A stretch of DNA of 64,000 nucleotides, taken from positions 124,001 to 188,000 of the forward strand of contig QPGO01000122.1 in assembly GCA_008632985.1 (NCBI GenBank), given 5' to 3'. Below the pieces are notes generated by a model. The model searched no databases and was not told the DNA's origin. It worked only from the letters and a program-made list of their open reading frames with translations. This document shows, one piece after another, positions 7,151-37,905 of the stretch (within the stretch, counting starts at the first letter, position 1; each line of letters starts with the position of its first letter). The position numbers and the translations under genes were made by a program. The stretch comes from Psammoneis japonica (taxonomy: Eukaryota).

Positions 7151-7192
7151 ACTCTGGAGCAGGGATCTCTGCTCTCTCCACTCTAGAGGAGA

Positions 7193-9222
7193 GAGCAGAG
7201 CCAGTGGAGAGGGGGCTGACAGCTGACCCAGATGACCAATTGTTGTGCACATTTTTTGCACGACAAACAGTGATTGCGGAAAAACCTGAAACCAACACAA
7301 CACCACTCTCTCTGCCACAGCACTGGCTGCAGCCAGCTGCTGCTCCAGCGGAGCTCTGCTCTAGAGCAGCCAGTGGCAGAGAGGGCCCAACAGCATGGCA
7401 GCAACAACAATGACATGATGTTTTGCGGGTGTTGATGATTTGCAATTCCACAATGAGTTGACCATCCTCCACTGCCAATGTGAGTTCAGCTGTTCATCAG
7501 AGCAGCCTCCCAGTTGTAAGTGGATTTCAATTCCAGAGGTCATGGAGGAGAGAGTGAGGCATGAAAACAATGACGATTTCTTTTTTTGTCAAACGGACAC
7601 ATCCACAGTGAAAGTCTTGAATGTTGGAGTGAGTGTCGGCAGCGATGCAGCCAAGGATCTTTACACACACTCATTGCAACAAGCACACTTGCAACATAAA
7701 AGGACATTCGTGGGTGTTGAAATTGCATGTCGCATGATGATTGGAGATGCTCTGTCATTTTCATTGCTCTTTCTGCAGTTGAAACCAAGGTGCAGTGCAG
7801 CTCACTCAGATTTCATGCATGCAGAATGAACAACAGATTGCACCATCGGCTGTTTGACCCTCGCTTTCAAATCTGTTGTCATTTTCAAAAATCTCTGCAA
7901 ATCATTGTCGACAGCCACCTCTGCCTCTGTCAACTGATGACTTGCTTGCTGTTTCATCCATCATCATGCAGGACAATTGTTGCCAAAGTGAGAGCGAGTG
8001 TTGCTGGGCTCAAAAAACAATGCGCCAGCCAGCCCACATTGGCTCCATGCTCAACCGTGGTTTCTTTTTTTTTTGCAATTGCAACTTTGCCAGGAGAAGA
8101 ATGCGCAGCGCTTCTTGATGGCTTGGTGGAAAGCTTTGATGAAAATGCTTCAAAGCACAATGCATTCCTGACATTTCCACTTCACTGCAGCAGGGAAGAT
8201 GTGATCATTGATTCGCTTTGTTCCCTGCACCATGCCCATCCATTGAACCTGCCAATGATGCCATTTTGGAGCACTTCATTCAACTTCTTCAAGCCCAATG
8301 GGGAGACATGATGTCTCTCATCAACGGCCGTCTTCGTTCTTTGATCCCCATCAGCATTGGTTGCACTGGCAACAGCACCTCGATTCCTTCGGAGTTGACA
8401 ACGGATTGGTCCCAGGATGATGGAAACAATGATGGTGGAAGCACTGGAGGTGATGGGGCAAGTGATGGTGCTGTCATTGCAGCTGGCAGCACCAGTGCAT
8501 CCACGGCAGCTGGCAGCACCGGTGCACCCACGGCGATGACTGTGAACTCAACTGCTGACTCTGAGGAATGAAGAACTCATGGCTTTGGCTGGCTCTGCTT
8601 TTGAAGTGCAAATTTTGGTTTGTCAGATTTGCAGTGTGTCACTGACTTTCAGCTGGTTTTAAGATGTGCCACATGCAGCATTCTTTCCCAACCCATTGAG
8701 ATGGGCTTTGCAAAGAGCAACTGTTGGTCTTGACGGGAAAGCAGTCTTCACCCAAAGTTTCAGCCATTCCATGTGCCACTGCTTTTCCATGGAACCCAGA
8801 CACTGTGAGGTTTTGAGTGGTCTTTTGTCGCTGGTTGACGTCGGCACAAACAGCACATTGACTCCGTTGGAGGTGACTCATTGCACAGTGGGGACCGCTT
8901 CGGAGATCATGGAAACAATGCCTGGGGGGGGACCCGACGACATGGCTCAACACTGGAACAATGATCATTTCCTTTGACCTTGGCAACTCCACTGCCACTG
9001 CAGCAACGAATGGTGCGAATTCTGTTTCTTGGCAAAGCAGGACAAAGTGGGCGAGACGGCAAACTGCGAAACCCAGCGTTGTTGCGTGTTAAAACGCTGC
9101 AAGTAGAGACACTGGTACGACAGCTTCTCCGAAAGTAACAGTTGGCAAAATCGCTTGTCTAATCTGGGCCACTTTAGCGCGCGAGGTAAGCTTATAGTGA
9201 GCCAGCTATTCACATGATTTGC
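7193..9222 (+). repeat. Tandem duplication copy A (hypermutated; pseudogenised version of the 9917-10534 ORF)
   Basis: Colinear with 9229-11208 over about 2 kb; most differences are TpA or CpG in copy B replaced by TpG/CpA here. Confidence 0.9.
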
Positions 9223-9228
9223 GGTCTA

Positions 9229-11208
9229 CAGCAGAGCACCGGTAGAGAGGGGGCTGACGGCTGACCCGCCAGACGACCAATTATCGCGCACATTTTTCGC
9301 GCGACGAACAGCGGTCACGGCAAAACCTGAAACCAACGCCAACGCAACAACACGATAGCAACAACGACACGATGTTTTGCGGGTGTTGATGCTTTATAAT
9401 TCCGTCACGAGTTGACCATCCTCCACTACCAATATGAGTTCAGCTGTTCAGCAGAGTAGCCTCCCGGTTGCAAGTGGATTTCAATTCCAGAGGTCATGGA
9501 GGAGAGTGAGGCATGAAAACGATGACGATTCCTTTTCGTGTCGAACGGACGCTTCCACGGTGAAAGTCTCGAATGTTGGAGTAAGTGTCGGCGGCGATAC
9601 AGCCAAGGATCTTTACACGCGCTCGTTACAACAAGCATGGTTGCAACGTAGAAGGACGTGTGTGGGTGTTGAAATTGCATGTCGCATGATGATTGGAGAC
9701 GCTCTATCGTTTTCATTGTTCTTTCCGCAGTCAAACCAAGGTGTAGTACAGCTTACGCAGATTTCACGTATGTAGAATGAACGATGGATTGTACCATCGG
9801 CCGTTTGACCCTCGCTTTCAAATCTGTTGTCATTTTCAAAAATCTCTACGAATCGTTGTCGATAGCCGTCACTGCCTCTATCAACTGATAACTTACTTGT
9901 TATTTCATCCATCATCATGCAGGACAATCGCCAGAGTGAGAGTAAGTGCTGCTGTGCTCAAAAAACAATGCGCCAGCCACAGTCCACGTTGCTTCCGTGC
10001 TCAACCGTGGTTTCTTTGTTTTTTGCCGTTGCGATTTTACCAGGAGAAGAAAGCGAAGCGCTTCTCGATGGCTTGGTGGAAAGCTTTGGTCAAAATGCTT
10101 CGGAACGTAATGCATTTCTGGGAGCGCTAGCCTTTGTCGCCGGTATGGTGCACACCGGCTGGGAAGGAGTGACCATGGATTACCTTCGTACTATGTACCG
10201 TAGCGTTTCCGTGGAACCAGCCGATGATGTCGTTTTGGAGCGCCTCATTCAACTTCCTCTAGCCCAATGGGAAGACATGAGGTCTCTCATCAACGAGCGT
10301 CTTCGTTCTTTGATCCCCATCAGCATTGGTTACGCTGGCGATAGCACCTCGATTCCTTCGGAGTTGACTACGGACCGGTCCCGGGACGATGGAAACAATG
10401 CTAGTGGAAGCACCGGAGACGATGGGGCAAGTGATGGTGCTGTCATTGCAGCTGGTAGCACCAGTGCATCCACGGCGGCTGGAAGCTCATCCACGGCGAC
10501 GACTGCGGACTCAACTGCCTTCACGGAAGAATGAAGAACCCGTGGCTTTGGCTGGTTCCGCTTTTGAAGTACAAATTTTGGTTTGTCGAATGTGTAGTAT
10601 ATCACTAAGTTTTAGCTAGTTACAAGATGTGCCACATGCAGCATCCTTTCCCAACCTGTTGAGATCGGCTTATCGAAGAGTAACTGTTAGTCTTGACGGG
10701 AAAGCAGTCTTTACCTAAAGTTTCAGCCGTTCCATGTGCCGCTGCTTTTCCATGGAACCCAGACACAATGAGGTTCTGAGCGGTCTTTTGTCACTGGTTG
10801 ACGCCGGCAATGTTTGCAACAGCACATTGACTCCGTGTTGACTCATTGCGCGGTGGGGACCGCTTCGGAGACCATGGAAACAATGCCTGGCTGGGGGGGG
10901 GACCCGACGATATGGCTCAACACTGGAACAAAATGACTATTTCCTTTGACCTTGGCAACTCCACTACCACTACGGTAACGAATGGTACGAATTCTATTAT
11001 TTCTTGGTAAAGCAGGATAAAATGGGCGAGGCGGCAAACTACGAAACGCAGCGTTGTTGCGTGTTGAAACGCTGCAAGTAGAGACACTGGTACGACAGCT
11101 TCTCCGAAAGTAATAGTTGGCAAAATCGCTCGTCTAATCTATCTGGGCCATTAGCGCGCGAGCTAAGCTTGTATGAATAGTGAGCCAGCTGCTTCACATG
11201 ATTTTGCG
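9229..11208 (+). repeat. Tandem duplication copy B (largely unmutated)
   Basis: Colinear with 7193-9222; both copies end in ...ctgggccca..tagcgcgcgag..gtgagccagct..ttcacatgattt. Confidence 0.9.
9917..10534 (+). CDS. Hypothetical protein (possibly the last exon of a longer gene) inside duplication copy B
   Basis: 205-aa ORF of natural-looking composition with a Ser/Thr/Ala/Gly tail; its homologue in copy A is broken. Confidence 0.35.
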   Translation: MQDNRQSESKCCCAQKTMRQPQSTLLPCSTVVSLFFAVAILPGEESEALLDGLVESFGQNASERNAFLGALAFVAGMVHTGWEGVTMDYLRTMYRSVSVEPADDVVLERLIQLPLAQWEDMRSLINERLRSLIPISIGYAGDSTSIPSELTTDRSRDDGNNASGSTGDDGASDGAVIAAGSTSASTAAGSSSTATTADSTAFTEE

Positions 11209-11390
11209 TCTTGCTGGAAAGGTTATTCTTGTGGAGGAAAAAGACAACAACTTAACGTGGCAGCTAGAAACACAAAGTGAGTTGCGCCATTATCTCAGCG
11301 TCACAAAAGCAGGAACCTAATTAATAACGAGTCTGTATGGCTAAACGAAAAGCAACCATCTCGTAATTTTCCACGATGCAATCAACCGTT

Positions 11391-20232: not shown

Positions 20233-21480
20233 CTAATAGTAAGGCTTCTTTGGGCACGTGTTTGGTTTGCAATAACCGCCCTTGAACTTTCCTCCCTTCT
20301 TCCAGCACTTGGACTTGGTTAGCATCTTGCACTTGCCAAACTTGAAGCAGCAGGCTCCAACTTTCTCGAGGGGGCAGGTGTTCGGTTTACAGAGAGTGCC
20401 AAGACCGGCGAAGTCTCCTCCAATTCTCTTGCAATACCTCTTCTTGGAATCGATACAAGTATCATTCGATGTGCAGCAAGCTCCAAATGCAGCTGGGCAA
20501 GTCTCCTTGCTACAAAGGTTGCCTTTACCACCAAAGTGACCTCCTTTGCGGAAGCAGGGTCCTTGTTTTAGATTAAGGCACTCGCCCTTGTCTTCGAAGC
20601 AACAAGATCCGCGAACTTCTTTCGGCTTCGGGGTAGGATAGTACGGCTTGTAAGGCTTTGGGGTAGGAGGATAGTACGGCTTGTGAGGCTTGTAAGGCTT
20701 TGGGGTAGGGTAAGGAGTGGGCTTCGGGGTGGGATAAGGCGTCGGCTTCGGGGTGGGATAAGGCGTCGGCTTCGGGGTAGGATAGGGCGTCGGCTTTGGG
20801 GTTGGGTAGGGCGTCGGCTTCGGCGTAGGGTAGGGCGTCGGCTTCGGGGTAGGGTAGGGCGTCGGCTTCGGGGTAGGGTACGGCGTAGGGTAGGGTGTCG
20901 GCTTCGGCGTAGGGTAGGGCGTCGGCTTCGGCGTAGGGTAGGGCGTCGGCTTTGGCGTAGGGTAAGGCGTCGGCTTCGGCGTCGGCTTCGGCTTATAATA
21001 CGGGGTGTGAGGCTTGTGAGGCTTCGGCGTCGGCTTATAAGGCTTGTGAGGCTTCGGCGTCGGCTTATAAGGCTTGTGAGGCTTCGGCGTCGGCTTATAA
21101 TACGGGGTGGGAGGCTTGTGAGGCTTCGGCGTGGGCTTATAATAAGGAGTGTGAGGCTTCGGCGTAGGCTTTGGGGGGTAATACGGAGTGTGAGGTTTCG
21201 GCTTATGCTTTGGCTTAGAATGGTCCTTTGGTGGGCACTGGTCGTAGGGCAAACATTCTGAGCCATTTCCCCTGTAGTAGCCACCCTTCCTCGCGCAGTT
21301 TCCAGGCTTGAGGTTTAGACACTCTTTAGGTCCATAAGTGAAGCAGCACGCTCCACGATATCCCAACAACTGCCTGTCGACGACAGATTCCTGCGAATCG
21401 TTGTACTTTGGGCTGTCCTCATGACCGTTGACAGACACCAAGTACCAAAGACTAACGATGGAGACAAAGGAGAACTTCAT
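20233..21480 (-). CDS. Secreted Pro/Thr/Lys/Tyr-rich extensin-like protein with four Cys-rich GACC modules
   Basis: Signal peptide [22 protein letters not shown] motif, one G(A/S)CC..C..C..GG.(F/Y).G.G..C..CP module, (PTPYPTPK)n and KPHKPY repeats, then three more modules. Confidence 0.85.
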
Positions 21481-21949: not shown

Positions 21950-24700
21950 TTCTCACACCCGATTTGTCTTAAATGGCATCGTGTGGCCAGCCAAATGCAC
22001 AATGGACAATGCACAAGATCGATCTCATCTGTGCCCCGTGTGAAAAACCATTTCCTCTCTGCTCTCGAGATGACTCTCCCGAGTCAGGCTTTGACATCAC
22101 ACATGTGTCACATTCGTGCTTGCAGGTGCAAATGAGTTGTTTTGCGAGGAGGGAGTGTGGCACAACTGTCGTGGAGCCTGGCGGCCAGAAGCGTCACTTG
22201 GAGCACGAGCCTCGCAGCAGCCAGGTGTGGTGCAACAAGGACCATCGGCATGCTTGACAGCTGCTGTGGGTGCCCACAAATTTGGCACTGGCAACTGGCA
22301 ATTTTGCTTTGAAATCTGCATTCAGAGTGTGCTGCTGCCCAACACCAAGAACAGTGCTCGAGAGGGAGGGCACCAGTGCCACGCAGTGATGCTCCAGAAA
22401 GTGCACAGCTTGCCATGTGTGATGCAAACAATTGCTGAGCAACTTTTGCTTTAAGCATGAGCAACTGCACCCACTCCTGCCTAAAAACAACAACCAACAG
22501 AGATTGGCCCCATCTGAGGAACACTTCAAAAGTGCCAGACAAAGAAGATGGGAGAAAGAAAGAGCTCTCAGGATGGCAGAGCTTGTTTCTAGTTTCTTGT
22601 TGCTTTTTCTCTTGCAAGCCACAAGCAGTCAATCAAAGTCAGCAGAAGGCAGTGCAAAAAAACATTGTGTTGATGACCCACATCATCAACTCTCAGCTTG
22701 CTGCTGGCAGGCAGGCCAAGGCCAAAATGTGGGCAGGCTGAAAAGGTGACAGGAGAGAAGGGCATCAAAATGTCAAAATCTTCCTCAGCTTTGAAAAAAT
22801 GATTTTAAAAAGCATTGAAATTGTGCTGGCATGCAGAGGTGACCAGGTTGCTCAGCTGTTAGAGGAGAGCCAAAACACAAGATGTCTGAAGTCCATGCAA
22901 TGCAACAAGAATGGCGTTGCACACAATGACGCGAAAAAAGAAAAAAAGTCTCCATTTGCCAAGCAACCCTGAGCTGTGAGGAGGAATGTTTTTTGCAATT
23001 TTGTGTCAGAGTGCACCAGTGATCCCAACAAAAGTGGTCAAGTCAGTGCCAGATGGCAAGTTGTCTGACCACAACACAAAGACAAAAAATGCCAGTGGAA
23101 GGTGCCATTTGGCGTGGGTGCTGGCCACACAAAAAGCATCAAGGACAGCCCAGAGTTGCTGCAAAAGACATCAATTTGGTTGCAAAAATTTTGGGACCAG
23201 ATGCTGGTGGCCTCAAAGGGAAAAGCACAGAGTGCAGATCAGAAGCCAGCTCCCAGCAATCAACAATGGCGCAGAGACCCTCTGAAGGAACCCATGACTG
23301 CCAAGCAAGTGTGCCATCTTGCCAAAATGAGCAGCATGCCAAAAGGCCTCAAGATTAAGAGTCAAGCTGGCAAAATGCTTTTTGACAACACTTGGCATGC
23401 AGGAGCAGACAAGACAAAGAAAAATTGGGCAAGGAACGCTTCAAAGAGAAAAAAAGAAAATGAGAAGATTGACTGCTCTGCAAGAAAATTGTTGTGCAGC
23501 ATGGCTGACAGAGACAAAATTGAAGATCTTGAATGTGAGAAAAGATCATGCAGACAACACTCAAGATGCAAAAAGTCCTCTGCCAGAAGAGAGCACTCAA
23601 GGGTCTGAAAAAGATCTTGCTTCTCTTCCCAACAAAAACTAAAAATTGGAGTGTTTGACTGACAAGTCCAAAGAGGCACTTCTTTCATTCAGAAGCCAAG
23701 TTCAGAAAATGAAACTCAAAATGATCAGAAAAAAGATGTGCTGGATGCCATCATGAACAAGGTGATGGCTGTTCAAGCAACAAAAACTCAAGATTTCTTT
23801 GGACAAGATCTGCCAGACCACACCACCAAAACCTTCAATGTGCAGCAATGCCAATGTCATCATCTGCAAGCTCAAGCTGCCAACAAAGTTGAGAAGCACT
23901 TGTTGTTGGCAGCAACAGCAAGAGCAGTCATGGCCACAGTGTGTGTGTTTTTGTGCCAGGTGTTCATGCCTCCCTGTCTGTGTGACTGCATTGAAAACAA
24001 TGAGTGTGAAAGATTGCATCAAAAATGAGGCAAGTGAAAGACATGATGCCGTTCAAGATTCAAGGGGTGCTGGCATGCTGTGGGAGAAAGCAGTCTCATG
24101 TTTCCAACAACAAAAAAGATGGGGTGGCAAAGTCAAGGTGCACACATTCTCTCTGCACAAGGAAGCATGACAAAGTGCCACACACAGGAAAGATGAAGAC
24201 TCATCTGTGTGAAATGTTGAACTCTTCTCACCACTCAATTGCAAGATGCTCCAACACAACATTGAATCAATCAAATTTGGTGCAATGAATTTGCTTTCTT
24301 GCAGCTGTAAGCAGAAAGCAGCACACTTTTTTTGGCATGCTGCAGATGATTGAGAGCATCAACTCACAGCATGGACAGCAACACCAATGGTGACAAGCTT
24401 CTCAAGCAGCTTGTGAAAAAAAGCATGTCATGTCTGGGTGTGATTCTGGGTTTTGTTCAACTCCAGAAGCGTTGCAAGTTGATCAAGTTGCATGTGTGCT
24501 GCACTCCATGTTTGAGGAGTTAAAGGAACTGTCAGGGGGGAAGATGGGCTGCCCATGCAGTGCAAATCTGTGCAAGGTTGGAATGACCTACAAAATGTCA
24601 GAGCCCAAGGAGCAAGCTCAGCTCTTTTGTTTTTTGCTGTGAAAGGCATCATGTTTGTCTGCAAGAGAGGCAAACAGAGTGGTTGACCTGCCTTGCCTCC
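21950..24700 (+). mobile_element. Highly decayed Ty1/copia (CoDi-like) retrotransposon relic
   Basis: Residual peptides ILGPDAGGLKGKS (about 23190), MPKGLKIK..G..LFD.TW.AG.D (about 23340) and KKDG..K.R (about 24115) recall diatom copia pol; TpA and CpG nearly absent. Confidence 0.6.
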
Positions 24701-27224
24701 CTCTCTTTCTGCTCATGTTGCCAAAGTGCCATCAAGCTGGATTTAAAAAAAAAAAACTTGCAACACTTTTGAGCATTCTTGACAGAACTTGCTGCAATGT
24801 TTGCCTCTTCACTCAAGGCAAGCAATGATCAGAACATTGGTGCACAGCACATTGGTGCTGTTTCTTGAGCTCCCACTCACACATTGACTTAAAAAAAGGC
24901 CTTGCTGCTGGTGGCATCACAATGCTGGTCAATGGCGCCATTTTGCCTGTGCAAGGTGCACAAAACAAAGGGCTGATTTGGCCAGCTCTGTCAATGCAAA
25001 GGCCATCACTGGAGACACTGTTGGGGTGGCCAAAGGTTTTTTGGACCAAACCCTCCATTCAAGCTCAAGGATGCACAATGTTGTCAAAATGGAAACAACC
25101 CAAGTGCCATGAAGTCTGGAACAGAATGGCAGGGCAAGCTCTGAAAAAGGTGTGTGGGACTTTGACATTGGGCATTTTTACATTGTGTCACTGGCCTCAC
25201 CAAGCAAGGGCAAAGTTGAGGTTGTGTCATCACCTGTGCAACAGTCAAAATGAAAGCTGTCCTCATGACAAAGCCAGAAGCTGGACCAGATTTGTTTGTG
25301 ATTGTGAGGACACTGTGAACTTTCAACGCTGGGTTGCCAGATCATTGGACCAAAGAATTGGGCTGCAAGAAGAAAGTTTTGGCTGGTCATGTTCTTGATC
25401 TGTTGGCAAACAGTTGCCTGGAGCACATGAAGTTTGAGTTTCAGCTGTGTTGTCAGTTGATCAAGGGCATTTGAAAACTCACATTGTCACCAGTTCAAGC
25501 AGCAAATCTCAGAGCCACAGGGCAAGAAAACACAACAAGTGTCAGGACAACATAAAAAAATTTGCAAAAATGTTCAAATCTGACAAAAAAACAAACCAAG
25601 AAGCCTGAAGCCTTGGCTTCTGTTTGAGCACAGGTGGCAAAGGACAGCACATGTGGATCAGCTCACTCGTGGGGTTTTTTGCTCTTTTGTTGGGTTTTTT
25701 GCTCTGTTGTTGACATTTCTGTGTGGTGCAAGATTGTCCTTTTCTTTGGATGTCTGCACTGACACTTCAGTTCTCTCTAAAAAGCAACAAGACCTAAAAG
25801 GAAAATCTCAGCAGCACAGCATGGTGTGAGTTTGAGAATGTGACATGTTTGCTCACACTTTCTCTGTGCATCTGCAGCCGTTTGGTGTGAACAAACGTGC
25901 TGTCTTGCACAACCTTTTTGTTTCACCCAGCACATGAAAATGTGACAATTCTTGTTGGTCATTTTTGTTGATGTTGCAGAAAAAAGAGCAAGTCATTTGG
26001 GGCAGCAATGACAGAAAAGCAGTTTGCCTGGTGTGGCCGCCGGCTGCAATCAATGCATCAATTGCCCTCTGTTGCTCTCCAAATCTGCTTCTTCCAGTGG
26101 CTGGTGCACTCATGAATGAGCTCTCTGATTGGTTTTGGTGCAAGCCACAAGAACCAGATCTTGAGCTTGAGGTCCAGATCTGAGGCACCTGGATTTGGAT
26201 CTCTGCTGACCAGAGAGCTGCAAATGGTGCTGGGTGATGTCGGCTGCAAGCTGCAAGCAAAAACTCACTCTCAACTGCCAACAACATGCAGTGCAATGTT
26301 GATGAGAGAAAAGAGTGAGCTTGCCAAAGCTCAAACGGTGCTTGCAAACTTGTGTGCTGCATCAGCATCATGAAAAGCAGTGCAGATCATGAAAACAACC
26401 CCACACTCATGCAGAGGGGGGGGGGCATGCAGGGGGCAGGTGCAGACCACTGTCTCTCAGCCATTGGTCTCCAATCTGCACTGAAGCATTTTTGAGAGTG
26501 CAAAAAACATGGCCAGCAGATTGTTTGTTGCTGCAGGAGGTTCAGTCAGAAGATTGGCTCCCAGCCTTTTTTTGCACTTTGGTTGATCTCGCTTCTCATT
26601 GATGCAGTCACAACAATGATTTCTGTGCTTGTGTCTCTGTCAAGGGGCCTGCAGGACCAAATCAACTCTGCCACATTGCACAGAAGCACTGCTGGGGCAA
26701 ACTGGAGGTGGCTCACACATGAGTTTGCAGGTTGGATGCCCTCAAAGGTGATTTTGCTCATGCTTTGTGTGTGCTCTGATGATGCACACACAGCTTCAAC
26801 CCAAGGAAAACCCTGCTTGGCAGCATTTTTTTGTTTGTTTTGCAAATCAAATGATTCATCAAGAAAACATTAATCTTCTGAACCTGCAAGTCAACTTGCA
26901 GAAGAGCCCGGGCTTCCAGACTTGTGTGTGTGGCCTCTGGCACACACCACACACATTTTTGTAACTTTTTTTTGTTCAGAGCAAGCAACATTCATCGAGG
27001 ACCAGTGTCTGGTCTGTGTGGTTCTTCAGACAAAATTGAAAATGGCACAGGGTTGATCAGCTGCCCTGCTGTGCATCAGCCAGCCATGCAACCCCCACTC
27101 TTGCTCTTGTTTGTGGCTCGCAGCTGTGTGAGCCTTCACCTCCTCCTGGGTGCCAATGGAGTCAGCGGTTTTCAAGTTTTGCTGGGGTTTGTGTTTTGTT
27201 TCTGATCAGAAGATGTTTCTGTTT
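24700..27224. repeat. Decayed repeat-derived DNA of unassigned class; target of the copia insertion
   Basis: Same TpA/CpG-depleted composition; no recognisable intact ORF. Confidence 0.45.
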
Positions 27225-27457
27225 GGTCACGACTCAACGTCATTCTGGTCGCATCTCACGACTGCAACCCAGACTCAGATTTTCTCTTCGAAACAATTGG
27301 CTCATCACAAAATCGATTCAAACAGAAGCAACGACATTCGTCATAATTTTTAGACAACGACTTTGAACAAGCGTCTGTTTGCCTCTGTGCTGCTCACATT
27401 GCTGCCAACCTCCGAGGTCTTGTCCATCCTACCCAGCTGCAGGACTGCATCTCGACT
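27225..27457 (+). repeat. 5' LTR (hypermutated)
   Basis: Ungapped match to 34234-34466 with 12 substitutions. Confidence 0.95.
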
Positions 27458-27619
27458 GGTCACAGAACCCAAGTTTACGCGTTGACGAGAGCTCCTGACC
27501 GAGTCATCGTCACGGATGCTTTCGGTTTTGATTTTGAAGCAAACCCGGGAAATGGCTGAGTCTCTCTCGCTTCTCTCGTCTTCATTCTAACAAGAACCTC
27601 CCATGCCACACTCTCTGTC

Positions 27620-29050
27620 ATGGCTGCCATCTCGATCCGGCTGTTCTGGCGAAGGCGTTTGCCGACGCAATGGCCGCCAACGCCGCAGCGACCGCTCCTC
27701 TGCCTCCAACCAAGCCGTTGTGTGGTGGAATTCACCCAACCCACGGGGCCCACATTGGTGGTTCCAAACTCAACGACAGGTGTGAACAATCCAACGACAG
27801 AACCTGCTGACTCGCCTCTCAGCGCCGTCATCCCAAGGCTCTTGACTCAACAGAACGATCTCTCCGCGATCAACAAGCTTCCGCAATGACTTCCAAGTTC
27901 AACGGTCGACTTGAGATTTTGGACGGTCCCATCAACGAACTTGACAAGGACCATTTCGTCAAGACCATTCGAGATCTAGCAGAAGCCCACGGTCAGCAGA
28001 CGTTCTGCCATGTCAAGAACAGCGACGACACGGTTCAACGCATCTTCGATCATCTTCACGAGCCCACTGTGACCGATCTCGTGAACGAGCACACGGTTTG
28101 GAAAGCAGCCACCGATGATGCCAAGTATGACGAGATCAAGCTCGACGACATCGGGCTCTCTCAACTTCTCGTTCACTCAAGAATCACCAACGCCTTTCGC
28201 GAGAAAATCGAGACCAAGTTCAACCATCTCCAAGACTGCCAAGACTGCCCTGGATCTGTTCTGTTCATGATGGCTCTCGACACTTGCAATGCCAGCGCTC
28301 TAACGGACATTGAGACGGCCAAGAAGCAGCCAGAAGACCTTGGTTTGGTCAACCATCCCGGCAAGGATTGCACGGACTTTGCCACCGAAGCTCTTCGCAT
28401 CGTGAAAATTGTGCAGACCGACTGCGCGCTTCCAGCGAACACAAGCTCCAAGCTGCTCCACAAGATCTCCTCTACGTCCTCTGAACACTTCAATCGGCGA
28501 GTCCGCAACAAGCTCGACGACGTCAAGGCTATGGAACGCAAGTGCCGCCTCAAGAATCCTGCTGACATCGTGTCCGACAGCGATTGCAACACGCTCGGAC
28601 CGGTCGGCATCATTGTGTGGATTCAGGAGCAACACAACGAACTCGTGAAGGACGGGGAGTGGCCTGCATTGGTCGCCAAGCTACCCGAGAGCAATCTTTC
28701 GACTGCGGATGACCCTGGGAAGACGAAGCACTGCTTTGGTTGCGGTCTCGAGGGGTGCACCAAGAAGACGTGCCCGAAGTGCAACGCCAAACCGCCGCGC
28801 AACGATCCTCCTCCCAATCCGCCGCCTGCAGCCGACCCTTCTAAGAAGAAGAGGTGACCCATCGCTGCCTGGCGTGCTAAATTTGACAGGGAAACGAAGA
28901 AGGATGAGAATGGCAAGGAATGGAAATGGTGTGCCACGTGCACGGCGAAGGGTGCCGACAAACCTGGAATTTGCCAGAAGCACTCTACCGCGGAACACAC
29001 GAAGACCACCACAAGCGCCCTCCCAAGGAGACCCCAGCCGGGAATTTGTC
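27620..29050 (+). pseudogene. gag region of the copia element with a degenerate zinc knuckle
   Basis: ORF pieces 27620-27889 and 27886-28857; CFGCG.EG.TK..CP knuckle; WKWCATC-type motif at about 28920; interrupted by stops or frameshifts. Confidence 0.7.
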
Positions 29051-30439
29051 TTCTGTTGCTGATCCGGATGGTGGCGTGCCCATGGGTCCGCCAGCTCAGA
29101 CTGCCATGGAACCAGAGGGAGACGACTCCGACCCCAACGAGTTGGTTTTCTCAGGAATGTGGTGCGCGGCTACGGATGCCGTTGCCGACCCAGATTTCTG
29201 TTCCGCCCCTGTTGCTGCTGCAATTGTTGTCACTCCGGCTTCTTCGGCCGAGAGGGAGAGCGATGCAGTCGTCAGCACTGAGGTGGTTTGCAACGAAACG
29301 AGCCCACCTGCACTCACCTCAGTCGTGGATCCAGTCGTGTCTCCCATCGTGGTTGAGACTGTCACTCCCGAAGATGCCGATGACTTCTGCGAATGCTCCG
29401 ACGCTTTCTCTACATTTGAAAACGAACCACCAGCTATTGAGTTGTTTCCGGCCTCGAAGCTGCACTCCATCAAGCATTCAGATGAGTTCTTTGACGCTCC
29501 CGCACATTTGATGGACATGCTGTCAGACGACACAAAGTTGGATCTCATCCTTGAACACGACGTACACTTTGAAGACGCACACCACGACTCACCTCCGTGT
29601 GTCACATGTCGTGGCTTTGATTTCTACGATCCAGAGGTCCTGGATGCGGATGATTGTCACGAGGACGTCGAAGACGAGCCCACTTTGCGTCGATCAATCT
29701 TGGGACGGGTCAAACTGTTCATGTTCTGGCTCGCCGCCATGTTTTGGGAAACGGCACTACATCTTTGCTTTGCTCCGATCCCATGCATCCCTCGAGCTCT
29801 ATGCCGCCAGCGCAAACTCCCAACCTTGCACGGGTTTCCAGCCTCCTGGATGGTCCCATCCGTTGCAGTGATGGCATGGTCAGCAGTTTGCGCCGGTCAA
29901 CAGCCCGAGTGTCCATTCTCGAACGTTCCAAGCCGTTTTTCGACCGCTGGCTCTCAAGTCTACCATGTTGTGGAAGAGCTAGATGACCGGACAGTGTTGG
30001 ATGCGGGGTCACTGTTCGAACATCACAGGATCAAAGGCACGCAAGTGCTCACCGAGTTTGTCGCGCGCCATCCATCACACGCACTGAGCACTCGTCTCAA
30101 GGCCCACTGGGAGAGCCTGGGAGCAGCTGAACGGTCTGATGCGATGGACGAATCAGCCTTCTTTGACACCTGTGAGGAACTGGAACCTCTCGACGACCAG
30201 AAGTATTTCTTCGACGCTCTTGAGGACTTCAGCCCGGATTTCTTCCGGTTTGACGAGCTCTGTCTGCCGAATCACATCGTGGACACTGCCCATTTTCAAG
30301 ATCCTGTGGAACTGTTGGAGGAAGCAAGTGTCAGACCCGTCGTCTACAACACCTCCACCATCCAACTGCTCACTGGACAATCTCAAGCCGACCTCCTTGC
30401 ATCCGATCCGCAGGCACTCATCGGCCTGTCGGACGAGGC

Positions 30440-33400
30440 TCTCGGTCGTCATGGATGCTGGTGCCACGCTGGCTGTTGCCCCCGACAAAGATGATTTTAC
30501 GGGGCCTGTGACTGTTCCCAAGAAACCCTCACAGATCAATGGGATTGCCAATGGTCCAACCATCCAGGGTGCAGGTCCGGTTGCGTGGGTGTTCACAACG
30601 CCGAGTGGCGCAGCCATCCAACTGAACACCATGGCATGCTACGTCCCTGGAGCCCGTCAACGCCTGCCATCGCCTCAATGCCTCTTCAACGAAGAGAAGG
30701 GGGCACGTGGGAAGCATGAGGGTGATGAAACCACTTTCCGTTTACACATTGACGGGATGGGCAAGTTGGTCGTGCCATGTCATCAACCAAGCCACTTGCC
30801 CATTGCGTCGATGACCAAGGGCGCATCTGCCGCTCCACAAGTGAATCTACAGATCCTTGACGAGGAGAATCAAAACCTCACGGCAGGCCAGAAGCTTCTT
30901 GTCGAAATGCACGCCCGTTTCGGCCATTTGAACTTTGGTCGCGTCCAAGCACTTCTCCGCGCAGTTCCATTCCTTTCGAACCGTTTCAAGTCCGCAGCGA
31001 AGTGTGACCACCCAAGATGCGAGGCATGCGAGTGTGCTAAAGGTCACAGACGCTCCCTTGGATCTACTCACAAGTCGACAGTCCCTGAATGCGACGGGGC
31101 CCTTCGAGCTGACCATCTTCGACCGGGTCAGGCTGTCAGCGTTGATCATTTTGAGTCGCGCCTTTTAGGCCGAACCTTCGACTCACATGGCAAAGCCACG
31201 TCCAAGCAATTCAAGGGCGGTTGCATCTTTGTCGACCATGCCTCTGGATGTGTCCAGGTTGAGCACCAACTTGGTTTCTCCACTGTTGAGACGATTCGAG
31301 CAAAGCAAGCGTTTGAGAAACATGCTTTGGACCACGGTGTCATCGTCCAAGAATTTCTTGCCGATGGTGGCGCTTTCAAGGCCAACGCTTTTGTGCAACA
31401 CATGCGAGACCATGAACAACGTCTCCGTTTTTGTGGAACCAACGCCCATCATCAGAACGGCGTCGCAGAGCGGGGTGTCCGAAGCATCTCCAACATGGCG
31501 AGAGCGATGTTGCTTCATGCATCAATCCACTGGAAAGGGGGAATTGACAGCTCCCTGTGGCCCATGGCTGTTTCTCATGCCACGCACATCTACAATGTCA
31601 CCCCAAATTCCAAGGGACATTGCCCAGTGGACATTTTCACCGGTTCGACAGTGCCAAGACATCGATTGCGAGACATTCACACATGGGGATGTCCAGCGTG
31701 CGCACTTGATCCAACCCTTGCTTCCGGAAAGAAACTCCCGCGTTGGGAACCTCGCACTCGTCGCGCTTTGTTCGTGGGACTCAGTGCCATCCATTCCAGT
31801 GAGGTTCCTTTGGTCCTCAATCTACAAACTGGCAGTGTCACTCCTCAGCATCATGTGGTCTTTGACGATCTCTTCACAACCGCGCCATCAATCGAGAGGG
31901 AGACGGATCCACCTGATCACTGGGAACACTTGTGCCTCAACCAATCGACATGCATCCCTCTGGAGAAGGATCAAGCAGTTCATTTGCACGATGAGTGGCT
32001 TGCCCCTCCAGAGCGTCAACGTAAAGAGCGAGAACTGGCCAGAGCAACACGTGTTCGCGGCCATTTTGAGCCTGCTCCATCAATTGCTGTGCCGGATTCA
32101 CCCACTTCTCGTGACGACGTCACCGATCGAGTCGCACCTGCGACTCAGCAGCCAACGCCACCAGTCCCACCTGCGACTCAAACTCCTGCAGACTCCACGG
32201 ACTCTACGCCAATTCAGCCACCTGAACCTCAAGATGGCAACGAACTTCCGCCACCCAAAGTGCCGGCGGAACCAACAGCTCCTCCCCCAGTCGAGACACC
32301 TCCTGTGACGAATCCAGAGGGAGCACCAGGGCTGCGATGGTCTTCACGGTCAACCAAGGGACAGCTCAACTCTGCCAAGTTTGCAGATGAGGTCCACCTC
32401 AGCTCCGTCGAGGAAATGCCACCACCGATCGGACACGAGGCTCAACTGGCATGTCTGGCAACTCTCGAGATGGATTTGGACAGTGGCGCCATCAATGTCG
32501 GCGATCCATGAGCCTACGCAGCTAGCAAGAAAACCAAGGACCCTGACATGCCTTCGTCACACAATGCTCTGAAAGGTCCAGACACCGACGAATGGACCAA
32601 GGCGACGAAAATTGAAGTCAACGCACTCACACATCGTCGAGCCTGGAAAGCAGTCGAGCGTCAGCCGCACATGAATGCACTTCCAGGTGCATGGGCACTC
32701 AAGCTCAAGAGACTCCCAGATGGAACCCCTCTCAAGTGTGAGGCCCGATGCTGCGTCCGCGGTGATTTACAGAAAGAAGGAGTCAACTGCTTCAAAACCT
32801 GCGCGCCGGTTGTGCAATGGTCCAGCGTCCGACTCATGCTCACTGCGGCATTAAAGGAGGGATGGACCACATGTCAGGTGGACTGTGCCACAGCCTTTTG
32901 CCAAGCTGATGTCACCGAGGAAGTTCACACAACACCGCCGAAGGGATTTGCGCTGAGGTCGGGACTCAGTGTGGTTCTCAAACTTTTGAAAGGACCACAC
33001 GGCCTAAAACAGTCTCCCAAGGGCTTCTGCGAGAAGTTACGAGCTGGTTTAACCGAGCGCGGATGGGTGCCTTCAGCCACAGATCCCTGTTTGTATTTCA
33101 AAGAGGGTGTGATGTGTGTGGTGCACGTCGACGACACCGCATTTGCTGGAGCTTCAGCTGAAGCTCTAGAAGCAGAAATTTGCAAGTCAGGAGTCTCCGA
33201 CGACGAACATCGCCACGTGTTTGAACTAAGAGACGAAGGAGAAGTCGGCAACTTTCTCGGTGTCAAGATCAAAAAGCTCTCCGAGGGTCGATTTCTACCC
33301 ACTCAACCCGGTCTAATTGACAAGGTCCTGCGTGCCGCACAGATGCAGGATTGCAATGGAGCATCCACTCCAGCTCTGCCCACGGCTGTTGGTGCCGACA

Positions 33401-34212
33401 CGGATGGCCCACCTTTTGATGAACCCTGCAATTGTCGCTCAGTTGTTGGAATGTTGATGCACTTGGCAGCGAACAGCCGGCCAGACATTGCATGTGCCAC
33501 ACATCAAGTGGCTCGATTCTCGTTTGCACCCCGAGCGTCCCACGCTGCTGCAGTGAAGCGGATGCTCCGACACCTCAAAGCAACTGCTGCTGAAGGTCTC
33601 ATTCTCAAGCCTGCGCAAGATCATCGAGTTGATTGTCACGTCGATTCTGACTTCGAGGGGTCATTTGGTGTGGAAGATGGTCAAGACCCAGTTTCTGTCA
33701 AGTCCAGGACTGGACACCTCATCTGCTGCGCCGGCTGCCCGCTCATCTGGGTGTCCAAGCTGCAGACTCTTGTGGCATTGTCGACTGTGGAAGCGGAGTG
33801 TGTCGCACTTTCTCAAGCCATGTGCGATCTCATCCCCATTCGTGAGGTTCTCAAGGAACTCAACCACCACGCACTCGGAAAGTCTGACCGCCAAAATCCC
33901 ATCACGACTCACTCCAAGGCTTTTGAGCTCGCAAACCAAGGCACCGATGACTCACCTGTAGAGCAGAATGTCCTGCCTGCGTCCATTGTGTACGAAGATA
34001 ACTCCGCGTGCCTCAAGTTCGCACGTGTGCCCAAGTTGTCTCCGCGAACCAAACACATCGGCATCCCGCACCACTGGTTTGGGACTAAAGTCGAACAATT
34101 GGAGATCGATGTCCAACCTATCAGCACTCTAGAGCAACTAGCCGATCAGTTCACGAAGGGACTACGGACCGATGCGTTCCGTACGGCTAGAAAGGCTCTT
34201 ATGGGCTGGTAA
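30440..34212 (+). pseudogene. pol (protease, integrase, reverse transcriptase, RNase H) of the copia element
   Basis: VVMDAGA (PR), HARFGH..CEAC (HHCC), VSVDHF / FLADGG / QNGVAER (DDE), HGLKQSP, HVDD, HVDSDF, LSTVEAE, EDNSA, RTKHI, QLADQFTK; in-frame TGA at 32509-32511. Confidence 0.95.
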
Positions 34213-34233
34213 GCTCTCTCGGTTGAGAGGGAG

Positions 34234-34466
34234 AGTCACGACTCAACGTCATTCTGGTCGCATCTCACGACTACAACCCAGACTCAGATTTTCTCTTCGA
34301 AATAATTAGCTCATCACAAAATCGATTCAAACAGAAGCAACGACATTCGTCATAATTTTTAGACAACGACTTTGAACAAGCGTCTGTTTACCTCTGTGCT
34401 ATTCATATTGCTACCAACCTCCGAGGTCTTATCCATCCTACCCAGCTGTAGGACTGTATCTCGACT
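34234..34466 (+). repeat. 3' LTR (close to the ancestral state)
   Basis: Follows the polypurine tract; begins AGTC and ends GACT; followed by TSD tgttt. Confidence 0.95.
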
Positions 34467-35020
34467 TGTTTGAGACAAAAGTTGACTTTTGGAACTTTGT
34501 GTCCTCTCACAGTGCCAAGCAAACTCTGATGGTCTCCAGCTCGCCACACCAGGTCACCACGACACGGTGTGTCAAGCAGCTGTTCTTGGAGTGTCGTCAC
34601 AATCATTTTGCAGCTTTCAATGGACCATATTTGTTGTTCTTTACCCTTTTGCTACTATTTGACTTTTAGATTCCAATCATGCGGACACAACTCAACCTTT
34701 GTCTGATTTTCGCGTCAATTCGTCGCCCCTCCTAGTTTCGAAAACGAGGATTGGTGGAGAGCTCTCCTATGCTCGACGACACTTCTGAAAACAAAAGCTG
34801 ATATTCGCAACGTAACCGATCAACCATATATACACTTGCCTTTTCCCTATCATCGGGTATGCGCACTATCAAATCGCTTAACTTGGTATCCTCGGTGAAA
34901 TCTCTTTAGAAAGTGCGATACGTTGTTTGACACAGAATTACTTGTGCTGATTGACTTTCAAAACATGCCCGAGAGATTTGGCGCTCATAAACTTACTTAA
35001 TCTGATGCTCTGTCGCATAA

Positions 35021-35270
35021 GGGGCAAGCCATGAGCCGTGCTTGTTGGGAAGTTTTGAGCACAATGTCATTTACGAACGTTTGATGCAAAACTTTGATAT
35101 GGAATCCCAAACAGCTCTGATTCCAAAACTGGTGTCTGCGACTCTAGCCATTGACACCAATCATGTATTTCACCACACCTTTCCATATCGCTTCTGCAGA
35201 CATACTCGGCTATCCTTAAAGCCACACTACAGCATTTGACGACTATGGAGTCAACGGTATTCCTAATTAT
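35021..35270 (+). pseudogene. Orphan 3' fragment of a SUN-domain gene
   Basis: LLGSFEHNVIYERLMQNF..IPKLVSATLAIDTNH..YRF aligns with LLGSYEYNVNHERVLQVF..IPKLQSVTLAIDTNH..YRF at 15110-15290. Confidence 0.8.
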
Positions 35271-36983
35271 TTATGCACTGAGCTTTGTTGTTAGCTTCCC
35301 ATCTCGTTGTCTGTCAAAGCTTCCATTCTCATAGATTGTTCCGACCTCCCACAATATCTTGAAATCCATCTCGCGGTGATTTTCCTTGTTACGTCTCATT
35401 CGAAAGGTCCCACGCATCACTTGGTCGGATTGTAGCGTTGGTACTCCATCCGCCAGGGGATCAAACCAAAGTGTCGTTTGCTTCCAATGGGTTGCTCTCG
35501 ATTGGCAGCCTGTACTAAACGTAACGAGATGAAGCTGGGAATCGAATGCAATGTCAAAGGAAACAACCAACTTGTCTATTGCAATGACAGCCTTGTTGCC
35601 ATCATTTTTTGGTTTCAATTCAAATTCAGCACAAAAGTCCAAGTCCTCGTCTCGACAAGTGTTTAAATCAAAGGTAATCAGTTTACAACGATTCGTCACA
35701 ATGGCTTCCGGAGGAACAATTTCGACACTTGCTTCTTCCGTCAATTCTCTCGCAACGCGTGTTTTCATGGGCGTCATGTCTATATCGTACACATTGTTCC
35801 AATAGTTCATTGCCAGATCCGAGGCTCCCTCCAAGAATATTGTAGAACCATTGGGAAACATTGTACCTGTCCTCGTCATGAGTGCATCACGTGCCACCAT
35901 GACACTGGGAAGCATGGTTTCAAACAAGAGCGCATATCCCATCCACTCGCTCACAATAACGTCCACTTGTTCATTCTCGTCCAATGGTAATTTTTGATTC
36001 GCAATCAAGTCTTCCACCTTGCCTCGTACACAGTAAATGACTTGTTCGTACCCATTGAGTGCCACAATGTCTCGTGCCTCTTTCAAAATATCCGACCCAT
36101 CAATGGCAACCACTTTGCGAGCACCCGCCCTGGCGGCAAACACAGACAAGACCCCCGTTCCACAACCAATATCCAAAACAACCTTGTCTTGAAAGAGTTG
36201 AGGATTTTTCAAAATGGCATCTTGATAGGCCTTGGTTCGTACGTCATCTTGAAGCATGGTTTGGTGAATGGAATGGTGCGAATACGAGGAAAAGTAGTAC
36301 GTGTCCACGTCGAGCTTTGTTTTTCGTGATGATGGTTTCTTGGAGGAGTCTTCGCTCGATGATTCTTCGAGTAGAGTCAAGGACTTGATGCAAGCCTTGG
36401 CACGTTCAAGTTGTTCTCGCATGGCTTCTACTTGTAATTTCAGAGCTTGTACAGTTTCCCCATCCGAGTGGATTTCCGTTGTTGGTGCAACAACTTGTGC
36501 ATTTTCCAACAATTGCTTCTTTTCGTCGTGTTGTTGTTTCAGAATTTGAAGATCATCCATCGACATGAGAATAGCATCATCCGCCATTACCGGACGAAAG
36601 AACCGTTCATTGTCGTACTGTTCGTCCGTCGTGTTTTGTTCTGCCTCGAGAAAAGCCGACAGTTCCGAGCCAATGGTGTCTTGTGCCGACGTTTTTTTGT
36701 CGTCAATCACAAACGAGCGACACTTGTTGACAAGAACAATAGACTCTTCCAAAAAATCCTGGTGCGTCGCTTTCGGTAAGTAATCGAGCAATTGAAATCC
36801 GTGCGTCTCAACATCGTGCTGTAAAGCGTCCGCTAGGGATGGAAACGAAAGCAATCCACAGGTTTCTGGTTTGCAACAGATTGGATAATACAATTCGTCG
36901 TTGTCATTCTCCTCGATTTCTTCTTCATCCTCATCATCATCATCGGCATTATCCGAAGATACCCAAGAATCCTCTTCCGACAT
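35271..36983 (-). CDS. PRMT3: Type I protein arginine N-methyltransferase, PRMT3-like
   Basis: YYFSSY, MLQD.VRT, VLDIGCGTG, SEWMGY..FE double-E loop, THW loop; N-terminal degenerate C2H2-like region. Confidence 0.9.
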   Translation of the reverse strand: MSEEDSWVSSDNADDDDEDEEEIEENDNDELYYPICCKPETCGLLSFPSLADALQHDVETHGFQLLDYLPKATHQDFLEESIVLVNKCRSFVIDDKKTSAQDTIGSELSAFLEAEQNTTDEQYDNERFFRPVMADDAILMSMDDLQILKQQHDEKKQLLENAQVVAPTTEIHSDGETVQALKLQVEAMREQLERAKACIKSLTLLEESSSEDSSKKPSSRKTKLDVDTYYFSSYSHHSIHQTMLQDDVRTKAYQDAILKNPQLFQDKVVLDIGCGTGVLSVFAARAGARKVVAIDGSDILKEARDIVALNGYEQVIYCVRGKVEDLIANQKLPLDENEQVDVIVSEWMGYALLFETMLPSVMVARDALMTRTGTMFPNGSTIFLEGASDLAMNYWNNVYDIDMTPMKTRVARELTEEASVEIVPPEAIVTNRCKLITFDLNTCRDEDLDFCAEFELKPKNDGNKAVIAIDKLVVSFDIAFDSQLHLVTFSTGCQSRATHWKQTTLWFDPLADGVPTLQSDQVMRGTFRMRRNKENHREMDFKILWEVGTIYENGSFDRQRDGKLTTKLSA

Positions 36984-37083
36984 GGTCTTGATGCTTTCGT
37001 TGTGTCGTTCTTGTTGTCGCTCTTCTTCTTTGCCTCTTTTTGGTTGGGAGAAAAGTGAGCAATGATAAACCTCAAGGATTTTT

Positions 37084-37905
37084 TGAGTGGCTGGAGTTGA
37101 TCCAATGAATCACTTTTGAGTCGTGTTTTGGGCGCGACCGACCTCGTTGAAGGGATTGATTCACGCTTTCCGATCTTTCGACAAAACACATTTGTCTCAA
37201 TCGAGGTGGTTCTCCCTGACCACTTTTTTGCACAATGCTGTAGCCATGCATTCGACGTTTTCATTATCGTCTCATTGCCATTGTTGCCGACCTGCTTTTA
37301 TCACAGCATCATCATCAGGCATTGTCAAAATTCGACTTGAGTGAGGAGGAACAATCCCCAGCACCTTCCCACTTGAAGACTTGAAGAACCCTTTTTGTCG
37401 TGCATGCTGCGGAAGCTGCCATGACATGGACAAGAAGTGAGCCATGACCACTGTTCTCATTTGTTTGTGCTGATCATGAGTGCAGCCTGAAGTGTCAAAA
37501 ATGACAAAAAAGAAGAAACCACAGCACATGCCTGAGTCATGCTTTTCGTCACGGCTGCTCTGAGCTCGTCGATGCGCCTCCTTCTGTTTTTCAATTGCAG
37601 ACGTCACAAAAGACAACAAGGGCATGTTGGCAAAGCTCGAGGCATTGACACATGCCATTGGAGGCTGTGGAGGCCAGCACGAGCGAAACCTCTCCACATC
37701 ACATGTGTGCCATCCCAACAAACGACGATGTGATGGAACACGCACACTCTTGCATGTTGTTCTTCGACTGCCAGCTGGTGTCTGTGCTGGAGGAGGCAAT
37801 GGTCCTTGAGGTGCAATCAAGTTTTGACTTGGGATGGCTGCTTGATGCACTGGCATTGGAAGGGCACAATCTTGATGAGAGATTTTTGGCTTTGGCTTCC
37901 AACCA
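37084..37905 (+). repeat. Hypermutated copy of the segment also present at 45586-47150
   Basis: 37084-37450 matches 45586-45950; 37440-37905 matches 46549-46995 and, more loosely, 45950-46395. Confidence 0.85.

Follow-up and report, generated by a model that had tools for sequence, protein, structure and literature searches.

We analysed a stretch of 64,000 nucleotides from the diatom Psammoneis japonica (GenBank assembly GCA_008632985.1, contig QPGO01000122.1, positions 124,001 to 188,000 of the forward strand; the whole stretch is hereafter called the window), in which a Ty1/copia retrotransposon occupies positions 27225-34466. The two long terminal repeats (LTRs) of this element differ almost exclusively at TpA dinucleotides, and the same kind of difference recurs in other parts of the window. 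Taken as a whole, the observations are very probably best explained by a targeted hypermutation of TpA into TpG or CpA, which took place after the element had inserted.

The LTRs were compared by ungapped alignment (27225-27457 against 34234-34466, 233 bp). They show 12 differences (94.8% identity), all of which are transitions, with G or C always in the 5' LTR and A or T always in the 3' LTR. At 10 of the 12 positions, a TA of the 3' LTR faces either TG (6) or CA (4) in the 5' LTR. The very first base of the LTR also differs (G in the 5' copy, A in the 3' copy), and as the target-site duplication ends in T just before it in the 5' copy, this difference too affects a TpA, one formed across the junction. 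The last difference, at 27393 (C in the 5' LTR, T in the 3' LTR), adjoins a TA site. A first-pass annotation of this DNA had reported just this picture, i.e. 11 of 12 differences at TpA, 10 of the 13 internal TpA sites of the 3' LTR reading TG or CA in the 5' LTR, an eleventh difference at the junction and a single one outside TpA, and the alignment confirms it on every count. TpA sites make up 26 of the 233 bases and hold 10 of the 12 differences, for which the binomial test that it had proposed gives p = 1.6e-8 in this LTR pair. CpG sites offer an internal comparison: none of the 12 is changed between the LTRs, against 10 of 13 TA sites (Fisher p = 1.1e-4), and the TpA count is 3 in the 5' LTR and 13 in the 3' LTR. 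As a control set, we took 11 LTR pairs of related copia elements from 80 metagenome loci. Of the 40 differences that these pairs show, 4 are of the TA type and 10 of the CG type, so that the pair of the window stands apart (Fisher p = 3.5e-6). A search of the LTR against a phage collection gave no match.

The direction of the change was examined in the open frame for reverse transcriptase (RT) and RNase H, which was aligned with 40 homologues of 51-59% identity. Conserved Tyr columns were defined as those where at least 70% of the homologues have Tyr. In the 15 columns so defined, the element of the window reads His 8 times and Cys 4 times, with one Tyr, one Trp and one Ile, while the other classes of conserved residues are kept at 56-100%. 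The replaced residues include that of the catalytic motif, VYVDD in the consensus and VHVDD in the element. A profile-based recount over 19 Tyr columns gave Tyr 2, His 8, Cys 6 and other residues 3, and Tyr amounts to 0.5% of the RT protein, compared with at least 2.2% in each of 120 listed homologues. Tyr columns that read His or Cys imply that TAY codons (Y, pyrimidine; R, purine) became CAY or TGY. The conserved Tyr codon at 33991, in the spared 3' part of the element, is still TAC. These columns support TA as the older state, which would have turned into TG or CA after the insertion.

The loss of TpA extends well beyond the LTR. A two-state hidden Markov model (HMM) run over the window delimited seven TpA-poor segments, covering 25.2 of the 64 kb (39%), where the observed to expected ratio (o/e) of TA is 0.00-0.12, compared with 0.40-0.66 elsewhere (Table 1). 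Within them, CpG o/e is 0.30-0.71, against 0.70-1.04 elsewhere, and CA+TG o/e reaches up to 1.7-2.0 in intervals of 500 bp. The longest stretch, interrupted by a weaker part at 33001-33350, covers the 5' flank of the element, its 5' LTR and most of its body. Over the 5 kb upstream of the element, 0 to 4 TpA are found per 500 bp, so that the left flank is TpA-poor, whereas the right flank is normal. The position of the element across the end of this stretch accounts for the contrast between its LTRs: TpA o/e rises from 0.19 in the 5' LTR and 0.17 in the internal region to 0.67 in the 3' LTR, as the TpA-poor stretch takes in the 5' LTR together with some 6.7 kb of the body, and the last 280-500 bp, including the 3' LTR, are normal. 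No TpA is present from 33315 to 33958, and 12 are present in 33959-34210. Around the transition, TpA is kept at 33959, 33991 and 33999, and the conserved Tyr at 34069 reads His. From about 33950-34100, normal sequence continues to an arginine methyltransferase gene, and the only open frames in 34213-35270 that might account for the spared zone have 67 and 51 residues. CpG o/e of the element is 0.88, i.e. near normal, against 0.00-0.41 in the flank (22001-27000).

Table 1. Main features of the window. Positions are counted from the first nucleotide of the window.
Feature	Position	Strand	Remarks
TpA-poor segment	301..1700		TA o/e 0.12, CG o/e 0.39; 103- to 116-bp tandem repeats
TpA-poor segment	4401..9050		TA o/e 0.05, CG o/e 0.33; contains mutated paralogue 7388-9220
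Mutated paralogue	7388..9220	+	partner 9345-11204
Unmutated paralogue, normal sequence	9345..11204	+	partner 7388-9220
TpA-poor stretch, 11.9 kb	22001..33950		HMM segments 22001-33000 and 33351-33950; TA o/e 0.09
5' target-site duplication TGTTT	27220..27224	+	same as 34467-34471
5' LTR, mutated copy, 3 TpA and 12 CpG	27225..27457	+	inside TpA-poor segment
Ty1/copia internal region	27458..34233	+	RVT_2 match; TpA o/e 0.17
RT-RNase H open frame, 566 residues	32512..34212	+	used for direction of change
Transition zone, end of TpA loss within the element	33951..34100		TpA positions and Tyr columns
Likely polypurine tract, purine run GAGAGGGAG	34225..34233	+	directly upstream of the 3' LTR
3' LTR, spared copy, 13 TpA and 12 CpG	34234..34466	+	TpA o/e 0.67, like normal segments
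3' target-site duplication TGTTT	34467..34471	+	
TpA-poor segment	37001..39400		TA o/e 0.04; contains 37442-37903, mutated copy of 46549-46992
TpA-poor segment	42801..45600		TA o/e 0.07, CG o/e 0.36
TpA-poor segment	58251..60600		TA o/e 0.04, CG o/e 0.30

Paralogue pairs with one copy inside a segment, found by self-comparison of the window, provided a further view of the change, the copy outside the segments being taken as the older state. The 70 TA of 9345-11204 correspond in the mutated copy 7388-9220 to 28 TG, 25 CA and 9 TA, and its 112 CG to 60 CA or TG and 44 CG; reverse cases number only 4 for TA and 2 for CG. Likewise, 37442-37903 has lost 12 of the 14 TA and 10 of the 25 CG present in 46549-46992. 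A poorer alignment (77% identity) of 37073-37903 with 45577-46394 gives 14 of 20 TA lost, and a short pair at the edge of 58251-60600 gives 5 against 0. No asymmetry was seen in a tandem pair that lies wholly outside the segments (45952-46549 and 46565-47151; TA 3 against 8, 50 transitions and 48 transversions). The first-pass annotation had stressed that no CpG was changed along with TpA. This stands for the LTRs and fails elsewhere, as the older TpA-poor segments have lost CpG too, which is as expected of methylated silent DNA.

The first pair also locates a border. Up to 9065, 51 TA are lost and 2 kept, and from 9104 on, 7 are kept and 2 lost, so that the TpA border is sharp to about 40 bp. 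The loss of CpG in the same copy ends near 8800, placing the TpA border about 250 bp farther out (8788-9104). Such an offset fits either a faster TpA process or a border that has moved recently.

The sequence preference of the change was determined on 94 TA sites, drawn from two paralogue pairs and the LTRs. The base 3' of the mutated adenine was C at 33 of 60 opportunities, T at 23 of 40, A at 8 of 41 and G at 9 of 47. Since TA is self-complementary, the side on which a pyrimidine lies predicts whether TG or CA results: at the 44 sites with a single adenine followed by a 3' pyrimidine, that adenine was the mutated one in 37 (p = 5e-6). RTAR sites accordingly gave CA 18 times and TG twice, and YTAY sites gave TG 19 times and CA 5 times. 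The target is 5'-TAY-3' on either strand. A 3' pyrimidine is closer to the UAC site of bacterial TadA than to the 3' G preferred by ADARs, and a 3' G is disfavoured here. Survival follows the same preference, the density of remaining TpA relative to normal sequence falling from 0.26 at YTAR to 0.11 at one-sided sites and 0.018 at RTAY (chi-square p = 1.4e-11).

Both strands are hit about equally. TG and CA outcomes number 6:4 in the LTR, 28:25 in the first paralogue pair and 6:6 in another pair, and runs tests on their order gave z = 1.41, 0.14 and -0.93. The absence of runs of either outcome indicates independent hits, and not a process moving along one strand. The first-pass annotation had noted both outcomes and had argued from them for a process acting on double-stranded DNA after integration. 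The counts bear out the former, and the Tyr codons, the position of the segments, the paralogue pairs and the hits on both strands, free of runs, support the latter. Within the element (27225-33950), the surviving TpA are distributed as RTAR 2, RTAY 4, YTAR 16 and YTAY 26, compared with 326, 562, 424 and 644, respectively, in 21 unmutated relatives. The RTAR to YTAY contrast (p = 0.002) hints at a strand bias within the element, where the survival of TpA seems to depend mainly on the sense-strand base before the T.

To what extent TpA loss exceeds other change can be estimated from the 5' LTR, in which 11 of 14 TpA were lost while the 206 non-TpA bases show a single change. This amounts to a roughly 317-fold excess per base over background, a figure that derives from divergence and is not a measured rate, and whose range (57-12,500) is wide because it relies on a single background event. 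For the loss of CpG in the LTR, the 95% upper bound is 0.25. In the older paralogue 7388-9220, losses on a log scale are 2.05 for TA and 0.93 for CpG, from which it appears that the TpA process saturates early and that CpG decays steadily.

The element itself is assigned to Ty1/copia on an RVT_2 match in its internal region (Pfam, E = 7.5e-30) with integrase-type domains upstream, namely gag_pre-integrs and SH3_retrovirus, both below the curated Pfam cut-offs, and on direct LTRs with a 5-bp target-site duplication. The role of the purine run next to the 3' LTR is likely, given its position. The gag-pol frame (27811-34212) is interrupted by in-frame TGA at 28855, 29509, 29869, 30085 and 32509, and by TAG at 29980. 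Stop codons in 27225-33950 are nearly all TGA, with 12 TAA and 6 TAG on the + strand against 104 TGA, and spurious long frames are present, such as a frame of 524 residues at 28920-30494 in a second reading frame. Such near-exclusive use of TGA could be misread as a variant genetic code.

A protein search for copies of the same family returned a best match that was 58-59% identical, and no close copy is on record. In a public sequencing run (X1), summed depth is 4000-7000 over the element and about 65-137 over its flanks. The family is thus abundant, bearing in mind that summed contig depth is not copy number. This run revealed 750 variable places (619 transitions and 131 transversions). Of the 40 listed among these (27517-33897), 11 are CG in other contigs where the window has TG or CA, so that this copy, or its lineage, had also begun to lose CpG, even though the LTRs show no such loss. 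Three adjacent pairs of places (28875/6, 31476/7 and 33381/2) oppose TG to CA. At the likely primer-binding site (27458-27473), two X1 contigs, in a loose-end consensus, have TG and TA where the window has CA and CA. Such a mixture is what one would expect if a single older TA had been altered differently from copy to copy.

Several points weigh against targeted TpA hypermutation as we describe it. Among the 80 metagenome loci with related reverse transcriptases, 78 lack the signature (TA o/e at least 0.43). Of 98 open frames scanned in the TpA-poor segments, 0 matched Pfam, so that "foreign or silent DNA" as a description of the target is shown for the copia element only. The 3'-pyrimidine rule is not clearly followed in the 12 mutated Tyr codons: the 5 with only the sense-strand adenine favoured read Cys in 3 cases and His in 2, and the 7 with both adenines favoured read His in 6 and Cys in one. 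At the 12 LTR sites themselves, the direction of change is deduced from neighbouring sequence, and among the 40 listed of the 750 X1 places, none lies in an LTR and could polarise them. Finally, the sequencing platform of the window and of X1 is unrecorded; a miscall of modified bases is unlikely.

The most serious alternative concerns the chemical step only, and we regard it as improbable rather than negligible. A lesion on thymine would arise if a JBP/TET-like dioxygenase oxidised the T of 5'-RTA-3' to 5-hydroxymethyl- or 5-formyl-uracil, which mispairs with G and gives T to C. An A-to-G change at TAY and a T-to-C change at RTA on the other strand are indistinguishable from sequence alone. 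The sites most completely lost in the element are those where the sense-strand T would be favoured (RTAR against YTAY, above), an asymmetry which is consistent with damage to the non-template strand, provided that transcription of the element runs in sense. In dinoflagellates, another lineage of the SAR group (stramenopiles, alveolates and rhizarians), enzymatic modification of thymine to 5-hydroxymethyluracil is tied to transposon silencing, according to the available part of a 2024 PNAS report (PMC11572971). Against this, the asymmetry involves small numbers and an assumed direction of transcription, and no thymine modification has been observed here. Moreover, the main pairing partner of 5-hydroxymethyluracil is A, and in trypanosome telomeres base J is found at Y-T-A, not R-T-A. 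To our knowledge, the dinoflagellate base is an epigenetic mark, and we know of no case where it acts as a directed mutator.

Next comes the very unlikely case that the signature is an artefact, modified bases at TpA and CpG having been read as TG or CA by the base-caller. In some long-read assemblies, palindromic modified sites are known to cause systematic errors of the consensus. However, X1 contigs show 0 differences from the window over 26000-27253 and 34437-36000, at a depth of about 65, though X1 may be the source of the window itself. The signature is also present in two metagenome contigs from other assemblies, and the available text of a preprint on the chlorarachniophyte Bigelowiella natans (Mettrop et al., bioRxiv 10.64898/2026.01.13.699255) reports genuine de novo TpA mutations on the basis of Illumina reads. 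An artefact would, in addition, need a young element modified at TpA yet unmodified at CpG.

We give very little credence to the proposal that the LTRs are not sisters, the element being a product of recombination or gene conversion between a mutated copy and an unmutated one, with the junction near 33950-34100. The abundance of the family in X1 means that templates for exchange exist, and the change of state does fall within the element. The first-pass annotation had itself raised the possibility of LTRs from different recombined copies, but the duplication TGTTT (5 bp) is preserved at either end, which indicates that both LTRs stem from one insertion. Each end of the element also matches its own flank, TpA-poor over 5 kb on the left and normal on the right, and recombination would leave unexplained both the confinement of the differences to TpA and the same pattern in unrelated paralogue pairs.

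A reversed direction, with the 5' LTR original and the 3' LTR altered by C-to-T changes at CpA (TpG to TpA), is hardly credible. Fungal repeat-induced point mutation (RIP) makes just this pair of changes, and resembles the process seen here in producing fast, context-specific transitions that disable transposons and skew dinucleotides. Many diatoms also encode DNMT4 enzymes related to fungal RID, whose function is unknown according to the available part of the report describing them (PMC9998398). Yet the conserved Tyr codons make TA the older state, and it is the TG/CA side that is abnormal in composition (TA o/e 0.00-0.12), the 3' LTR being like normal sequence. One and the same paralogue copy would, moreover, need to have gained both TA and CG from TG/CA. 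RIP makes TpA from CpA and TpG, whereas the process here destroys TpA. The duplication that triggers RIP is not a trigger here either, as the change affects a single copy per pair, leaves the tandem repeats at 45952-47151 untouched and extends to a flank that is low-copy to judge from X1 depth. On the Tyr columns and the paralogue pairs, a RIP-like change of CpA to TpA in the 3' LTR was rejected.

ADAR-like RNA editing, or reverse-transcriptase error, fixed at retrotransposition can be practically discounted, in spite of the 5' U favoured by RNA-adenosine deaminases (10.64898/2026.01.13.699255, available text): it would affect one transcript strand and be shared by both LTRs, whereas the two strands are near-equally hit (6 TG to 4 CA in the LTR, 28:25 in the paralogue pair), the LTRs differ although one cDNA makes both, the flank outside the element and the paralogues are affected, and the 3' G that ADARs prefer is disfavoured (9 of 47).

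Returning to targeted TpA hypermutation, we propose the following sequence of events. After the insertion of the Ty1/copia element, a locally targeted process would have changed TpA into TpG or CpA (A:T to G:C) over a chromatin-sized segment that takes in the 5' flank and the 5' LTR as well as some 6.7 kb of the element. Hypermutation that ended some 280-500 bp short of the 3' end would have left the 3' LTR with its original sequence. The process runs to near-saturation, far faster than background change or CpG decay, converts Tyr codons to His or Cys and removes TAA and TAG, leaving the element dead, with HVDD in place of YVDD. We suppose that an enzyme acting on A:T pairs at TAY is recruited to silent, methylated chromatin, and that active genes set the borders of the segments. 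The targeting would probably depend on the silent chromatin state and not on repetition of the sequence, given that tandem repeats are spared and that the mutated flank has 1.3-2 times single-copy depth. As for the chemistry, the most likely candidate within this explanation, with about even chances, is a TadA/ADAT-like enzyme that deaminates adenine in DNA to hypoxanthine. TadA/ADAT enzymes and ADARs also prefer adenine after a 5' T or U; their targets are RNA, whereas here both strands of DNA and a non-transcribed flank are changed.

The decay of 5-methylcytosine at CpG offers a partial parallel, as it too turns a self-complementary dinucleotide into TG/CA in silent DNA, and it co-occurs with TpA loss in the older segments (60 of 112 CpG). 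It acts on C, however, not on A:T pairs, and is much slower here, with 0 of 12 CpG lost in the LTR against 11 of 14 TpA, and a border lying about 250 bp inside the TpA border.

A literature search yielded a single matching report, the 2026 preprint on B. natans (10.64898/2026.01.13.699255), and none on diatoms was found; the SPLASH paper (PMC9258296) proved to have no bearing on hypermutation in diatoms. In the available text of the preprint, 230 of the 231 mutations found in two integrated viral regions of mutation-accumulation lines are A to G or T to C. All of these lie at TpA, arise at about 6e-7 per site per generation and occur in some lines only. The same text describes 124 TpA-poor clusters rich in CpA+TpG, and proposes an ADAT2-like adenine deaminase. 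The likeness to the window is close, at least as far as that text goes: a near-exclusive change of TpA to TpG/CpA, on both strands, in discrete regions, at a rate orders of magnitude above background, and a long-term depletion of TpA with an excess of CpA+TpG in clusters, where reverse-transcriptase domains are enriched among TpA-poor genes. With the cut-offs given there, 16 of the 64 1-kb intervals of the window qualify, in runs of 2, 4, 5, 2, 2 and 1; owing to its intact CpG, the element does not reach the cut-off for CA+TG.

There are differences as well. The host is a diatom (Stramenopila) here and a chlorarachniophyte (Rhizaria) there, and the dated target here is an LTR retrotransposon with its adjoining DNA, which is low-copy as X1 depth suggests. 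TpA is almost wholly erased in our segments (TA o/e 0.00-0.12), compared with the 0.45 that the available text gives for its viral region. The older segments of the window have lost CpG, and a 3' pyrimidine preference and borders sharp to 40 bp are seen here. De novo events were recorded in B. natans, whereas our signature is read from sequence alone. A term search of the main text of the preprint found no mention of LTRs, diatoms or trinucleotides, and methylation in general terms only. By analogy, the process in the window is probably of the same kind as that of B. natans, here in a diatom host.

Two of the metagenome loci carry a comparable signature. In the first (L036, 1-1789), o/e is 0.04 for TA, 0.20 for CG and 1.67 for CA/TG. 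The second (L077) has 7 TpA in 1-1033, the RT frame, and 29 in 1034-1666, and of its 11 conserved Tyr columns one has Tyr, 3 have His, 6 have Cys and one has another residue. Both are distant copia relatives. In L077, the TpA-poor part ends together with the pol frame, and TpA is normal over the 630 bp that follow, which recalls the spared 3' end of the element in the window. A metagenome scan with the window's own RT gave 62 pattern matches, none of which is a relative.

As regards the remainder of the window, all Pfam-matched frames outside the element fall in normal sequence, and the neighbouring genes have long uninterrupted frames. A Pfam scan of 17 other frames gave 0 matches, and the window has no tRNA genes that could be border barriers. 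The arginine methyltransferase frame (35271-36983, - strand) has its best named relatives in Chaetoceros, Cyclotella, Thalassiosira and Skeletonema (47-51% identity), and the best named relative of a glucokinase frame is in Amphora (52% identity). These matches fit a diatom host that probably lacks a close sequenced relative in the collections compared. The segment 37001-39400 starts at most about 20 bp from the first ATG of the methyltransferase frame (36983-37001), so that the region upstream of this gene lies in mutated sequence. A frame at 61028-62974 (- strand), about 430 bp from the segment 58251-60600, has a eukaryotic RNA-dependent RNA polymerase domain (PF05183, E = 4e-28) and may be an RNA-silencing gene.

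Two repeat arrays were also noted. At 20696-21202, within the frame 20233-21480, tandem repeats have periods of 24-108 bp, with a 24-bp unit at 20696-20979 that contains GGGTAGGG. This array belongs to normal sequence and has kept its TpA (o/e 1.92 at 60% G+C). At 525-1353, CA-rich tandem repeats of 103-116 bp lie in a segment that is poor in both TpA and CpG and has a strong negative GC skew.

Hardly any case of directed mutation at adenine:thymine pairs in nuclear DNA is known, and the presence of the signature in a diatom genome and in two environmental contigs suggests a wide occurrence of the process among marine protists. The LTR pair provides a built-in comparison of before and after, which gives the direction of the change, its rate relative to background and to CpG decay, the TAY motif and the sharpness of the borders. 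It also carries a warning for annotation, as in TpA-poor segments dating by LTR divergence would be grossly wrong, TAA and TAG vanish, spurious frames appear and Tyr turns into His or Cys. More tentatively, and with less than even confidence, we suggest that an old DNA base editor is common to diatoms and chlorarachniophytes, and possibly to the whole of SAR. It would be recruited to silent chromatin and not to repeats, and would erase 5'-TAY on both strands while neutral divergence is still below 1%. If this is true, the shared editor would constitute a genome defence with the logic of RIP and the opposite chemistry, and LTR pairs that straddle a segment border would be natural clocks for its rate and its spreading.

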